This document shows, piece after piece, positions 57,939-63,508 of a stretch of DNA of 64,000 bases. A program made the position numbers and the translations under genes. The stretch spans positions 22,376 to 86,375 of the forward strand of contig CAKRZX010000002.1 in assembly GCA_934434555.1 (NCBI GenBank), written 5' to 3'. Source of the stretch: an uncultured Clostridia bacterium (GTDB lineage Bacteria; Bacillota; Clostridia; Christensenellales; QALW01). Numbering within the stretch: the stretch's first letter is position 1; every line of letters starts with the position of its first letter. Under the pieces are notes generated by a model. That model was not told the DNA's origin and did not search any database. It was given only the letters and a program-made list of their open reading frames with translations.

Positions 57939-58784
57939 TTAATTATACACAAACATCTGTACACCGGAACAGCCTATGCCGTTTTTCTGAATTTCAACGT
58001 CATACAAAATCCCGTATCTGCCGTTTTTAAGGCGAACTACGCGCTGTTCTTCAACTCTGCCGGTATAGCCGTCGTTCAAAACTTCATCTAAGCGGGAAGA
58101 TAATGAACTGTTCGCTTTATCCATATTGACATTGAGTTTTTCAATTCCTTTCATTGACGGGGCAAATTGAAAACTGATGTCGCAAAGTTCACCGGAAGAA
58201 TTTATGCTTATGCTGACTTCGTCGCAAGTGAGATATTCGCCTATTTTCTTTGAGAAAATAAACGTGTGGCGAATGTCCTCGGTAGTCCAGGGACGCTCGA
58301 ATTCTTCAATAAGAACGTATTCACCCTCGGTATACTTTTCAACGTATTCTTTTGCTATCGCCAATCTTTCGTCGCGGGTATTTCTTTCGCTTTCGTCAAG
58401 GGAGAGTTTTGCTTTCCTCAACCGCATATATGTTACCGGTTCGCCGCTTTTTACGTTTATACCTACCCGATATTCTGTTCCCGCTTCATCGGTATAAATA
58501 TATTCGTCGTAGTCGCAGTGATAGTAGGGCATATATCCCGTTTCGTTATATTCGCCCTTTATCTCTATTCCCTCAAAGGTGATATCAATTGTTTTGGGCG
58601 CACCGCTCCGCTTTCCCCATTGGTATTGAAGAGAAATTTCTTCTTTCTCGATTCTGTCCAAGAAAAAGCCGTTGTACACGCCACTGACAAGTACTTTCTT
58701 TCCTGTATTACACGCTGTACTTGTGATACAAATAAGAATTATACTTATTAGTGCTATAAACTTTTTCATTTTATGCTGCTCCAT
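57939..58784 (-). CDS. Lipoprotein of unknown function (paralog B)
   Basis: It has a lipobox-like signal (ALISIILICITSTAC). It is clearly paralogous to 58847..59674: both share ERLAIAK.(Y/F)VE..T.GEY and the C-terminal MFVYN. Confidence 0.65.
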   Translation of the reverse strand: MEQHKMKKFIALISIILICITSTACNTGKKVLVSGVYNGFFLDRIEKEEISLQYQWGKRSGAPKTIDITFEGIEIKGEYNETGYMPYYHCDYDEYIYTDEAGTEYRVGINVKSGEPVTYMRLRKAKLSLDESERNTRDERLAIAKEYVEKYTEGEYVLIEEFERPWTTEDIRHTFIFSKKIGEYLTCDEVSISINSSGELCDISFQFAPSMKGIEKLNVNMDKANSSLSSRLDEVLNDGYTGRVEEQRVVRLKNGRYGILYDVEIQKNGIGCSGVQMFVYN

Positions 58785-58807
58785 TTTGCATAAGATAAAC
58801 AGGGGTT

Positions 58808-58830
58808 GCGGGCAGATTTTGTCTGCCCGC
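58808..58830 (-). other. Inter-paralog stem-loop with no U-tract
   Basis: A 9-bp GC-rich stem gcgggcaga/tctgcccgc lies between the two lipoprotein genes. It is not followed by a T-run on the coding strand. Confidence 0.35.
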
Positions 58831-58846
58831 AGTGGGGAAAAACAAT

Positions 58847-59674
58847 TCAGTTGTAAACAAACATTTTGAAAATACTTGATAACCCGTTCTTTGTAACTCT
58901 GACATTGTATTCCGTTCCGAAATTTCCGTTTCTGAGTCTTGTAACATACTCTGAAAGAATTTCATATTCGGTATTCTCATCTGTAATTTTTTCAAGCCTT
59001 TTCTCTGCCACTTTTCGGCTTCTTTCGGCATCAATTTTCAGTTCGCTTACACCGTCCATAATCATATTTTTTTTGTAACTGCAAATTTCGCCGAGAGAGT
59101 TCACTGTTACGCATATTTTATCTGCTGTAAGCAGTCCGCTTATTCGCTTATTAAAGAAAAAAGTATGCAAAATCCCTTCACTTTTAGTTTTAACATTGGC
59201 ATTGCCGTTATCCCACGTAAGTTCATATTCTCCGGTCGTATTTTCTTCAACAAACTTTTTTGCTATTGCCAATCTCTCGTCGCTTTCATTCATTTCTTCC
59301 GGAGTTAACTCCCTTGTGGAGTTCCTTAAATAGCGTGCCCAACCCACAATCTCACCGGTTTTTGAATCAAGGTCAAATGATATTCCTACGCCATCGCCTG
59401 AATATTCATATATGTCATAGTCATAGTTATAATAGGGTGAATATACTGATTCATCATATACCGTATCATATGTCTTTCCGTCAAATGTGATTTGCTTGGT
59501 TTCGGGCATAGATGCTTTCTTCTCTCTCTTTTTCAGAAATTCTATTTCATCGCTTATGCCTTCAACAATATTCCCGTCTGTCGTGTTAAAAATATATGCC
59601 TTATTTCTGTTGGCGCAAGCGCAAAGGCTTACAAGTACCACAAATACTATAATTATGCTTATTATTTTTTTCAT
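58847..59674 (-). CDS. Lipoprotein of unknown function (paralog A)
   Basis: It has a lipobox-like signal (VVLVSLCAC). The start lies 1 nt after the upstream stop, which suggests operonic coupling. Confidence 0.65.
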   Translation of the reverse strand: MKKIISIIIVFVVLVSLCACANRNKAYIFNTTDGNIVEGISDEIEFLKKREKKASMPETKQITFDGKTYDTVYDESVYSPYYNYDYDIYEYSGDGVGISFDLDSKTGEIVGWARYLRNSTRELTPEEMNESDERLAIAKKFVEENTTGEYELTWDNGNANVKTKSEGILHTFFFNKRISGLLTADKICVTVNSLGEICSYKKNMIMDGVSELKIDAERSRKVAEKRLEKITDENTEYEILSEYVTRLRNGNFGTEYNVRVTKNGLSSIFKMFVYN

Positions 59675-61435
59675 TTTAATTTTCCTCTCCCGCTATTTGA
59701 TATGAATATAAAAGACTGTCGTTAACCTTTATTGAGGCTTTCCGGCAAGATTCCTGAATGCCGTATCCTTCTGCTCGGTATTTGAAAAAATATTCCGTCC
59801 AAACATTTGCGTTGGAAGTCGGAATTTTATCAGAAAAACCGATTGCGCTTCTTGCTCCGGCACGGACGCTTGCATCTACTATGTTTTTGCCCGTGTCTCT
59901 GTTCTTTGCACTGTGGCAGAATACAAACATTGCCAAGTCAAGATTTGACAGGTCTTCGTTTTGAATGTCTAATGACGAAACCGTATCAAGAGTATCTTCG
60001 TTAATAACAACATAAGTTTCATTAGCGTTATACGCACCGTGTGAGCGATTTATAAATATTCTTGATTCCTTTAACTTTTCAATATAATCGCTTTTTGATA
60101 TTGATGGAACACGATTCATATTGTACTCGTTGATTCCGAGATACGACATATACAAAAAGGTGTGACCGATAGTTGACTGGCGATCAGTGCCGATACTTCC
60201 TATTGAGACAACGGTAACTTGATTTCCGCCGATCTTCTGTAAAAGCCATTCGTCAGTACGGTCGGTTTTATCATTTTTATACGGCATTTGTTCCACGTTG
60301 CGACCATTTATATCACCGATTCCCGCTCTCAGACCTGCACCCAAGTCAGCATCAGTATAAGTTTCCGCAGACTTTGATTTGAATCTTACGGTACCGTCAT
60401 TAAGTATAATAACTTGCCATTTCTGCCTGTCAGAGCCTTCGTATGGCTGTATGGTCAGCATCTGCTGTTTTCTGTTCTCGTGCCCGTCCTTAACAGAAAG
60501 TGATTGACCGTTAGCCAAGCATATTATTTTATAATACCCGCTTCCGATATAGTCGATTTGCCATTGTTGTTCTGATTCACCGCAAAAACGCCAAACTTCC
60601 ATAACTAAATTTCCGGAAGTAAACCCGGTTATTTTGTCGTTATTGTCCGGTTGTAAATATAAACCGTGCTGAACATTTCTGACAAAGTATGCGCCGCTAT
60701 TTAATTTATGATACTTCGGGTCAACCGTAACGGTGCAGTAGCGTTTTTGCGGACCGCACGTAACGTGTATGGTGGTTTGCCCTGCCGAAACTGCCGTAAC
60801 CTCACCTTTGCTGTTTACGGTTGCAACATTTTTGTTTGATGAATAAAAGCCAATTCCGTACTCCTTATTGGTATTGATTTTCATAGTTTCGCCTATGTAG
60901 AGATATCCTGACGTTTTGTCTATTTCAAAGTCGTCGGGCTCATAGTATTTTTCTATACGGACATCGTCAATATACACCGCCTGACCGTCAACAGGGTCAA
61001 GATGGTCAAACATAAGTCTGAACAATCCTGTTTCTGCTGAAATATCGGAATCAAGTATATCGACTGTGCCGGAAAGAGTAAACCAATTGTTTGCGGTCAC
61101 TCCGCTGTATTTGCCCGCAAGACGGTAAAAATAGTTTCCGCTGTGGTCGGTTGAGAACGAGTTCTCTGTTTGTGTGCGAATTAACATTCCTATTATCGGC
61201 GCTTCGGGGGTTACCGCCGTTGTCAGGACTTTCATTGAAATGGTGTACTTACCCGCACCGTTTTGACGGATTATTGAGTAAATGTTCTTTGCGGGCGAAT
61301 ACCACGCTTTTGTTCTGCCGGTTATTTTGAGAGAATAATCTCCCATTGCTGAAAAGTCGGTTGAACGTGTGATTGTACCGCCATAGGGTGTTGACCACCC
61401 GTCCGCACTCGCACCGCTTTCAAAACTTTCAAACC

Positions 61436-61455
61436 TAGGGTTACGCTACCCATCC
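61436..61455. repeat. Left terminal inverted repeat
   Basis: tagggttacgctacccatcc. Confidence 0.8.
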
Positions 61456-61686
61456 GAACCCGTTCAAATGCGCAAAAAACGCACATCTACGGCGTCAAAG
61501 CGTCTTATAATATTTCCCTATATTATCTCACCGCTTTTCCTTGTATCTGCACATTTTTACGAATCTTCGACCTTAAACCGAATTATTTTTTCGTTTTTCA
61601 AGGCGACGGAACGCAGGAATACCGGGAGTATTTCAAGTTTCGGCAACGCAGAAAAGCGGAAAAAGAATCGGTTTAAGGCGTGATTA

Positions 61687-61706
61687 GGATGGGTATCGTA
61701 ACCCTA
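61687..61706. repeat. Right terminal inverted repeat
   Basis: The sequence is ggatgggtatcgtaacccta. Its reverse complement differs from the left TIR at one position. Confidence 0.8.
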
Positions 61707-62103
61707 CTGTTTCGTACGCGGCAGATACCTTAATGCTCTGGAACAAAGGAATTAACATAACAAGTATAAGCAGTAAGGTAATAGGTATTCTTGCTGTTTT
61801 CAATGTCTTAATCATATCAAATTCTTCATCCAAAAGTTTTTTATAAAAATCTTTGCAACCAAAAATCCCGCATTTTACACCTATTCTCCCTTCTTTGCCC
61901 TGTCTTAATCGCAGAAAATTTTTATTTCATTGGTACTATACCATATTCCGTATACAAAAGTCAATACCCAAATGCAAAAATTTACAATTTGTTTTTTTAA
62001 TTCAAATTTTGCGTGTTAAAAAGACTTTTTCCGCATTTCATATATAAAAACGCTTTTCGGGTTTGTTTTGTTACACCGGAAACAAAAAAAATTTTTATAA
62101 AAC

Positions 62104-62126
62104 AAAAAAATCCCCGCATAGCGGGG
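62104..62126 (-). terminator. Rho-independent terminator of the MATE gene
   Basis: The stem ccccgc ata gcgggg is followed by a T-run on the minus strand. Confidence 0.7.
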
Positions 62127-62149
62127 AAAAAACATAATATTTTTTAATT

Positions 62150-63508
62150 TTACTCGGCATCAAATTCGGGTTCGTATTCGGTAACGCCGCTCTTAATCCA
62201 ACTGCGGTAAAAAAGTACCGAAAGCACGGTTGAAATAATCCAGCCGATAGGCCACGAAAGCCATATTCCCGTTGAGCCGAGGGCGGTTGACGAAAGTATC
62301 GCCGCAAGCACAACGCGCAGCAAAAGGTCGGTAAAGGTTGCCGCCATAAAAAGTTTCATCTGTCCCGCGCCGCGGAGAACGCCGTCGGAAACAAGTTTTA
62401 CGGCAACAACAAAGTAAAAGGGCGAAACTATGCTTAAAAACATCTTGCCGGTGTTCAGTGCGTCGCCGCTTGCGTCTTCAAGGAAAATGCTTACCAGCGG
62501 ACGGGAAAGAATAAGATACGCGGCAATGACCGGTACGCAGATAATGCAAACAAGTTTTATTCCTGCCTTAAAGCCCTCGGAAATGCGGCTATATTCCTTT
62601 GCACCTAAGTTCTGCGCGGTGAAGTTTGAAATTCCGTTTGCAAGGGTGGTAAGAGAGGTAATAACCATATTGTTAAGTTTTATTGCGGCGGAATATCCCG
62701 CAATGGTACCGGAACCGAATCCGTTTATAAGGCTCTGGATAAAGATGTTTCCCACAGAAATAAAACTCTGTTGAAGTATGCTCGGAACGGCGATTTTCGA
62801 TACCGTTTTAAGAACGGAAAACGAGAAAACAGGTGCTTTTCCGTCTGATTTAATCTTTTTAAGCCTGAGGAACACGAAAATAAGTGCAAGCACGCAGCTT
62901 ACGCCCTGACACAGGAACGTTGCCCACGCAACACCCGCAACGCCCATAGAAAAAGCGGTAACGAAAAGTATATCCATACCGATGTTTGAAAGGGACGAAC
63001 AAGCAAGGAATATAAACGGCGTTTTTGAATCGCCGAGCGCCGAAAAGATTCCCGTTGCAATGTTATAGAAGAAAACAAAGGGCAGACCCAAAACGTAGAT
63101 ATCAAGATACAGCGCAGAGTCGGCAAAAATATTTTCGGGTGTGTTTATAAGCGCAAGCAGTTTGTCGCACAGGGTAAACCCGAGAAGCATTAAAAGCCCG
63201 CACAGCGCACCTCCGGCAATAAGCGTCGTTGATACCGCGCACTTCATTTTTGAATAGTCTTTTGCGCCGAAAAACTGCGATACTATTACCGAACAGCCGA
63301 TATTGCACCCGAAAGCAAACGCAATGAAAATCAGCGTGATTTCATAACTGTTGCCGACGGCGGCAAGCGCGTCATTACTTATAAATTTGCCGGCAACAAA
63401 ACTGTCGGCTATGTTGTACAGTTGCTGAAAAATTACGCTTGCGAAAAGGGGCAGACAGAATTTCCACAGCACCGTACCCGGCTTTCCTACCGTAAGGTCT
63501 TTGTTCAT
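62150..63508 (-). CDS. MATE family efflux transporter
   Basis: The 452-aa protein begins FCLPLFASVIFQQLYNIADSFVAG and has a 12-TM-like profile. Confidence 0.9.
   Translation of the reverse strand: MNKDLTVGKPGTVLWKFCLPLFASVIFQQLYNIADSFVAGKFISNDALAAVGNSYEITLIFIAFAFGCNIGCSVIVSQFFGAKDYSKMKCAVSTTLIAGGALCGLLMLLGFTLCDKLLALINTPENIFADSALYLDIYVLGLPFVFFYNIATGIFSALGDSKTPFIFLACSSLSNIGMDILFVTAFSMGVAGVAWATFLCQGVSCVLALIFVFLRLKKIKSDGKAPVFSFSVLKTVSKIAVPSILQQSFISVGNIFIQSLINGFGSGTIAGYSAAIKLNNMVITSLTTLANGISNFTAQNLGAKEYSRISEGFKAGIKLVCIICVPVIAAYLILSRPLVSIFLEDASGDALNTGKMFLSIVSPFYFVVAVKLVSDGVLRGAGQMKLFMAATFTDLLLRVVLAAILSSTALGSTGIWLSWPIGWIISTVLSVLFYRSWIKSGVTEYEPEFDAE

Follow-up and report, generated by a model that had tools for sequence, protein, structure and literature searches.

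A hairpin element that splits a secreted lectin-like gene in uncultured gut Clostridia: a probable non-autonomous MITE from a multi-copy family

A 271-bp segment at positions 61436-61706 of the 64,000-nt stretch of DNA analysed here (the window) is likely a non-autonomous DNA transposon (MITE) belonging to a multi-copy family of uncultured, Oscillospirales-like gut Clostridia, and it most likely inactivates the gene in which it lies. A transposase encoded elsewhere would bind the termini and move the element, and the palindromic apex GAATAC-N5-GTATTC is a candidate second protein-binding site that would be needed for mobility. The element would have landed at codon 36/37 of a secreted lectin-like gene, where translation from the native start would stop seven codons into the insertion and the remaining 585 codons, lacking both a start before an internal Met and a signal peptide, would leave the gene inactive. 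The disrupted allele would then have become fixed in the species.

The element, annotated without a strand, is bounded by TAGGG...CCCTA, its terminal sequence reads TAGGGTTACG..., and its boundaries are the same in copies elsewhere. The original prediction described inverted termini with one mismatch, which we recovered: the core TAGGGTTACGCTACCCATCC at 61436-61455 differs from its inverted partner at 61687-61706 at one of 20 nt, and the terminal inverted repeat (TIR) extends to 23 nt at 91%. The left arm of this pair, on the plus strand (61436-61458), corresponds to the 3' end of the element in the orientation of the gene, and the right arm (61684-61706), located by the inverted-repeat pair and a 20-mer pattern scan, abuts the signal-peptide exon. 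The 20-mer pattern occurs at only two places in the window, with 0.00 expected from 100 shuffles. Position 11 of the TIR (61446) is variable among copies and often unpaired.

In the predicted fold of the 271 nt, two long arms extend from a terminal stem; the folding energy as RNA is -96.7 kcal/mol (z = -6.1 against shuffles), and the deviation from shuffles is even stronger for DNA (z = -7.5). The long imperfect hairpin that defines the superfamily, arm A (61568-61680; covariance model, 133 bits), holds the second long inverted repeat that had been noted in the interior, at 61571-61589 and 61660-61678 (19 nt, 84%), and the extended hairpin proposed from it is borne out by a fold far better than that of shuffled sequences. 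The conserved apex CTTGAAATAC-TCCCG-GTATTCCTGCG lies on the minus strand at 61612-61637, includes the palindrome GAATAC-N5-GTATTC and was delimited by its invariance across element classes. Arm B (61459-61567), delimited by RNA and DNA folding, forms another hairpin, whose apex, ATAATAT..ATATTAT (~61504-61529), is AT-rich and palindromic; this arm is partly conserved in E2, a related element of contig L118.

The statement that the interior holds no plausible gene stands. Its sole open reading frame, of 71 aa on the plus strand (61468-61683), was rejected as a gene, being broken by indels in five of nine copies. Neither a consensus promoter nor a terminator was found within the element, and a search of 61000-62200 against Rfam at E <= 10 gave no match in it. 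Several features generic to MITEs are present, namely a length of 271 bp (below ~500 bp), no conserved coding sequence, TIRs, and an occurrence at multiple loci with the same boundaries.

The split gene lies on the minus strand. Its 5' part (61707-61815) carries the start codon at 61815, preceded by a good ribosome-binding site, and the signal peptide MIKTLKTARIPITLLLILVMLIPLFQSIKVSA|AYET, with the last codon cut after its first base; homologous N-termini are found in proteins P0004 and P0005. By consensus match alone, a promoter-like site, TTGACT-18-TG-TATAGT, lies at 61935-61964 on the same strand. The 3' part (59676-61435) is delimited by its reading frame and domain matches and comprises 585 open codons with CBM-like, Big_2, ricin-B lectin and CHAT-like regions. 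The frame MIKTLK...SAAYET enters the element and meets a stop seven codons inside. When 61707 is joined to 61435, one 622-aa ORF results, as had been predicted for an exact deletion of 61436-61706, and the split point falls at codon 36/37 of these 622, just after the signal peptide and ahead of the first domain. The repaired protein matches RicinB_lectin_2 (4e-18) and Big_2 (2e-8), and its CBM_4_9 and CHAT matches are sub-threshold; the earlier placement of a signal peptide upstream and a CBM-like domain downstream is thus correct, with this limit on the CBM_4_9 match.

The intact homologues P0004, P0005, P0007 and P0008 have the same domain layout as the repaired gene and share with it the junction ..T-G-F-E-S-G... 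For instance, P0005 reads ...CAT TTT ACC GGT TTT GAA... (H F T G F E), and the repaired gene reads ...ACA G|GG TTT GAA.... A 9-nt tandem duplication, TTTGAAAGT/TTTGAAAGC (61416-61433, minus strand), begins 2 nt from the insertion point and encodes FES-FES where the intact homologue has a single FES. Gene callers annotate the product as a 556-aa protein that starts at an internal ATG (61346) and has no signal peptide. In the 585 downstream codons, the earliest in-frame start is Met-67 of the repaired protein, and these codons specify no signal peptide of their own. Because a stop lies inside the element and the downstream part lacks an early start and a signal peptide, the split gene is most likely inactive, as judged from the reading frames.

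The same insertion is present in at least eight independent metagenome assemblies (among them L001, L002, L005, L006, L007, L008 and L010). The neighboring MATE protein is unchanged on 15 contigs, and all of those that reach the split gene show the same 804-bp gap followed by the same element. A lineage with ~95.5% DNA identity (L007/L008) carries the element at the same site, as does a third allele type (L009-L011). The original prediction of a recent insertion is not supported, since every contig of the species that covers the 5' region of the gene, including the ~95.5% lineage and all three C-terminal alleles, has the element at this position and no intact close allele appeared in a search of 5.8 billion protein clusters. 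Similarly, the exact repaired proteins are absent from a collection of ~15 billion sequences. The disrupted allele thus appears to be fixed in the species rather than recent.

The alleles P0001, P0002 and P0003 are near-identical over their first ~240 codons and only 45-60% identical beyond, and by this comparison the split gene is to be read as a recombination mosaic in which the element-bearing 5' segment is common to all versions. This segment, 98-100% identical between lineages, may have spread recently among them by recombination. The signal-peptide ORF and the 585-codon downstream ORF are intact in all three allele types; a dN/dS estimate for the period after insertion is without power, as the 5' segment is near-identical between lineages and, beyond the element, contigs at the level of strains are clonal.

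Additional features of the region emerged from these alignments. The C-terminal two thirds of the split gene differ sharply between the window (58782-60715) and both L007 (4632-5660) and L009-L011, in genomes that are otherwise ~95% identical, and the downstream DUF4901-like lipoprotein genes number two in the window and one in L007. As read from these alignments, the locus is a hypervariable, recombination-mosaic surface-protein locus. In L010, of the third allele type, the sequence to the left of the element (1-27) is not the signal-peptide exon and the element begins TAGGGG; either recombination with a copy at another locus or chimeric assembly may account for this end. The Logan contigs L003 and L004, both 100% identical to the window, end at a point matching 62060, which lies in an A/T-rich spacer with the MATE gene terminator on one side and the split-gene promoter on the other.

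Copies of the element also occur elsewhere. A TIR scan of JGI metagenomes recovered two full copies at other loci (L013 and L018), and a protein query with the accidental 71-aa ORF revealed further copies in L111-113, L114 and L115. These copies are 93-96% identical, have unrelated flanks and occupy at least four other loci, and they keep the boundaries TAGGG...CCCTA throughout, save one that ends in CCCTC. The proposal of a non-autonomous, TIR-bounded, multi-copy element is thus supported by near-identical copies with the same boundaries at other loci. The flanks around the copies in L013, L018, L111 and L115 combine left types X and Z with right types B and Z' in all four ways, which suggests inversion between two inverted copies by homologous recombination, with chimeric assembly as the alternative for contigs of low coverage. 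Flank Z is itself a hairpin module and is present on both sides in L115.

Sequence differences between strains are concentrated in the element. Over 6,022 bp, L002 differs from the window by four SNPs, all in the element, and L005 by two, both in the element; the sites concerned are 61567, 61606, 61611 and 61614. If SNPs were distributed uniformly, the chance that all four of those in L002 would fall in the element is ~(271/6022)^4 = 4e-6. The variant states at three of the four sites (61567, 61606 and 61614) are also found in copies at other loci. Because the SNPs are confined to the element and three of the four states match copies elsewhere, the pattern indicates gene conversion between copies, which implies that other copies reside in the same genomes. 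Between the window and L007, the element differs by ~5% and its flanks by 0-1%.

The junction itself allows the target site to be compared with the reading frame. With all 271 nt removed, the junction reads ...GAAACAG|GGTTTGAAAG... (spanning sequence GCCGCGTACGAAACAGGGTTTGAAAGTTTTG), and only this removal, or that of 271 +/- 3 nt, restores the frame of the window gene. With one TA kept, the junction becomes GCCGCGTACGAAACAGTAGGTTTGAAAGTTT and the gene reads ...ACA GTA GGT TTG..., out of frame, so the earlier observation that a TA-duplication model breaks the frame is correct for this gene. The accompanying claim that no target-site duplication is visible stands for anything beyond the terminal TA; the left TA itself may be ancestral, as the intact homologue P0005 has a GTA (Val) codon where the window gene reads G|TA. 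A TA derived from the target would require the loss of 1 nt right at the window junction.

A second split gene behaves in the opposite way. A 164-bp relative with TAGGG...CCCTA ends, at L122 951-1114 and L126 1163-1326, interrupts a small gene that encodes an integrase N-terminal SAM-like domain and possesses a start and a ribosome-binding site of its own, and the frame of this gene is restored only when one TA is kept (...TGT AAA CTA AAG AAT TTG AGC...). As far as the two junctions tell, no single excision rule fits both genes, and one of the two would have to carry an extra lesion exactly at the junction. TA flanks the copies of both classes, the 271-bp element and the L122/L126 relative, save one copy with TC, whereas the ends in other classes of the superfamily are TTGG..CCAA or CTGAGGG.., with no flanking TA. 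Chance alone would restore a reading frame one time in three, and because the L122/L126 gene, in contrast to the window gene, must retain one TA, the in-frame restoration upon deletion of the 271 bp may be a coincidence. Empty sites were sought at locus X through relatives of the neighboring gene, which yielded only divergent or otherwise occupied sites, and at three loci in viral contigs, where none was found; the comparison of L119 with L018 as an empty site gave an ambiguous alignment. The polarity of insertion and any duplication of the target are therefore putative.

The element belongs to a wider hairpin superfamily. At a locus occupied by the 271-bp element in some strains (L117/L111), other strains (L116/L118) carry E2, an element of comparable two-arm architecture with different termini and an identical central motif. 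In L116 and L118 (after 3687 and 2558, respectively) as compared with L117, L111 and L013, strains of one species thus carry either the 271-bp element or E2 right after the same gene, and a short flank at this hot spot, TTCTCTTATGCA, recurs inverted inside E2. A 53-nt BLAST match (E = 1e-4) from the plasmid and phage search led to a T-box leader in the fecal contig L120 (499-838, minus strand; 53 bits, E = 1e-10, under the Rfam gathering score of 93), whose stem III contains a 127-nt insert (571-684) homologous to arm A, including the invariant apex. The window element is not itself a T-box leader, as it has no RF00230 match; the L120 leader merely contains a related hairpin as an insert.

A covariance model of arm A identified further members at two MAG loci, L039 and L041, and a scan with the apex pattern TTGAAATAC-N4-6-GTATTCCTGCG found 11 viral contigs against ~0.3 expected by our own estimate. 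The relatives in viral contigs are single hairpins of ~165-170 bp with at least three kinds of termini (TAGGGTGTATC..., CTGAGGGAACC... and TTGGTAACC...), and all share the apex CTTGAAATAC-N4-6-GTATTCCTGCG and the blocks ATCTTTT and AAAAATCTCTC. The apex is invariant in element classes with four kinds of termini, in the T-box leader insert and in the 11 viral contigs. The stem of arm A shows covariation among relatives, with double changes in 24 of 39 pairs, a level reached by none of 500 shuffles. Mismatched pairs are equally often G-U (15) and A-C (12), with no strand bias, and the relatives lie mostly in intergenic regions, beside terminator hairpins or in leaders, positions that are usual for MITEs, with inconsistent orientation to local transcripts. 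On account of this parity and the variable orientation, the constraint looks like one on a DNA-level inverted repeat and not on a strand-specific RNA. In the viral contigs L128, L129 and L131, the relative lies in the 5' leader of a divergently oriented gene, 10-30 nt ahead of its ribosome-binding site and start codon. A literature search with the sequence motifs returned nothing relevant to the superfamily, which is apparently undescribed, although the element as a MITE represents an otherwise known kind of event.

No autonomous partner is present in the window, as originally predicted: the 64 kb contain no second TIR pair. The transposase-bearing relative to which matches elsewhere were expected to lead did not turn up among GTDB representatives, JGI metagenomes, viral contigs, plasmids or phages. 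An exact-TIR scan of 185,579 GTDB representative genomes returned no matches; the host species is absent from that set, in which the best relative of the MATE gene is 75% identical. The scan of JGI metagenomes revealed no autonomous element that shares the termini. When the element and two relatives were compared by BLASTN with plasmids and phages, the 53-nt T-box match was the only outcome, and viral contigs scanned for the TIR and an autonomous element yielded no partner; one viral-contig candidate, L133, was rejected as a chance match. No IS630-type transposase was found.

Several observations sit uneasily with a MITE that has simply knocked out its host gene. The searches gave neither an autonomous element with these termini nor an empty site; both parts of the ORF are intact in three allele types, which is unexpected for an old pseudogene and forms the main argument that function is retained; removal of the 271 bp recreates the T-G-F-E junction of the intact homologues; and, whereas the termini are the most conserved part of typical MITE families, here it is the apex. 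Even so, the in-frame repair is probably not functionally meaningful, and explanations in which the 271 nt are taken out again, either by removal of the hairpin from RNA or by reversible excision from DNA, are together unlikely.

The DNA version, by itself distinctly unlikely, is a phase-variation switch in which a transposase acting in trans excises the element precisely in a minority of cells and turns the gene on. The restored frame, the intact ORF and the status of the element as the only polymorphic, hence dynamic, spot in 6 kb would fit such a switch. However, no empty allele came up in the search of 5.8 billion protein clusters or in the exact look-up among ~15 billion proteins, nor did the scans reveal a transposase. 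Gene conversion from other copies accounts for the polymorphisms, and there are no flanking direct repeats for precise excision of the slippage type.

It is just as doubtful that the element is a mobile cis-regulatory hairpin whose apex is a protein- or RNA-binding module, with this copy retained to regulate or silence the gene. Its apex is indeed invariant across classes with completely diverged stems, and some relatives reside a short distance ahead of ribosome-binding sites or, in one case, within a T-box leader. Against this, the elements show no consistent orientation to the transcripts around them, there is no match to a known RNA family, and a copy inside a coding sequence can only truncate the protein.

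We give little credence to a broader scenario: an unrecognised mechanism would move the elements of a superfamily whose apex, and not its termini, is conserved and whose insertion junctions vary; the 271 nt would be removed at the base of the stem from RNA or DNA, so that the secreted protein is still made; and the loss of 1 nt at the junction would have been selected for the frame. The MITE would in that case serve as an intron or a switch in a bacterium. In its intron-like form, which we regard as very unlikely, all 271 nt leave the transcript at the base of the 20-bp terminal stem and the gene stays functional. This form would account for the exact in-frame restoration with its homologous T-G-F-E junction, the high stability of a fold whose two ends lie flush in a single helix, and an ORF that is intact in three allele types although the insertion is fixed everywhere, and it would reconcile the TA conflict if the insertion had duplicated TA and selection had then favored the loss of 1 nt. 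Nevertheless, no group I, group II or ribozyme match was obtained at E <= 10, the relatives are mostly intergenic in either orientation, and G-U pairs do not exceed A-C pairs as a strand bias would demand. Group I introns are preceded by U at the splice site and end in G, and group II introns follow GUGYG...AY, whereas the ends here, ...G | UAGGG...CCCUA | G, bear neither signature. No bacterial pathway is known to cut and religate an mRNA at the base of a hairpin.

Named intron classes and related candidates were rejected individually. A group I intron has no RF00028 match at E <= 10, and the exon ends in G and the element in A; a group II intron has no Rfam match, the ends are UAGGG...CCCUA, and 271 nt is far too short. 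The junctions speak against translational bypass, an intein and insertion of the IS200/IS605 or serine-recombinase type: the ends offer no take-off/landing codon pair, the length is not a multiple of 3, a shared target motif is lacking, and every 2-nt core model puts the gene out of frame.

An inverton, in which the 20-bp inverted repeats are recombinase sites that flip the 231-bp interior, is highly improbable. Inverted repeats do flank a short segment in the 5' part of a surface-protein gene, but all assemblies show one orientation, both orientations contain in-frame stops (in the inverted state, the signal-peptide frame would run through the 61468-61683 ORF and end at the TGA at 61681-61683), and whole copies, repeats included, are found at unrelated loci. 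An assembly or sequencing artefact can practically be dismissed, since independent assemblies from different projects and assemblers show the identical structure.

The MITE reading also invites comparison with known systems. Like the Correia elements (CREE/NEMIS) of Neisseria, the element is a non-coding hairpin MITE in the range of 100-300 bp, with inverted termini of 20-26 nt that begin with TA and no known autonomous partner. Correia elements have a central IHF site and Neisseria-specific 26-bp termini; in the present element, the palindromic apex with its invariant sequence is a candidate counterpart of that protein-binding site. Unlike Correia elements, the element shows no sequence similarity to the known Correia termini, resides in a Clostridia host, has two arms and measures 271 bp; moreover, the conserved part of its superfamily is the apex and not the termini, and its TA duplication is only putative. 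Transcribed Correia copies fold into long stems that are cut by RNase III (PMC10969869).

A resemblance to the TA-targeting MITEs of IS630/Tc1-mariner lies in the TA at both ends of every subfamily copy (one has TC) and in the L122/L126 relative, which needs one TA kept for the frame. In contrast to them, a TA duplication leaves the window gene out of frame, and other classes lack a flanking TA. Rickettsia palindromic elements are likewise small palindromic mobile elements retained inside protein-coding genes, where translation passes through them in frame and adds them to the protein (PMC10969869). The present element differs from them: every frame that enters it from the gene meets a stop, and its length of 271 is not a multiple of 3.

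With group I introns and IStrons, the element shares a clean split of the gene, no obvious target duplication, high structure and a frame restored by removal. It departs from self-splicing introns in its lack of an Rfam match, its splice-site nucleotides, its flush 20-bp inverted termini and relatives that are mostly intergenic in either orientation. Finally, REPIN/RAYT systems also comprise non-autonomous hairpin repeats that lack target duplications and often lie beside terminators, but the element has no GTAG-type REP signature, is much longer and was seen with no RAYT gene.

These findings bear on both annotation and mobile DNA. Every assembly has the gene annotated as a 556-aa protein that lacks a signal peptide, whereas the true gene has 622 codons and is split by a mobile element. 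Through this element, a superfamily of hairpin MITEs comes to light in gut Firmicutes and their phages that has apparently not been described before. It can now be searched for directly by its invariant 26-nt apex, and it gives rise to local exchange of sequence between copies and probably to inversions as well. Should precise removal occur, improbable as it is, and the gene still work, bacteria would have a previously unrecognised means of tolerating or exploiting insertions in genes.
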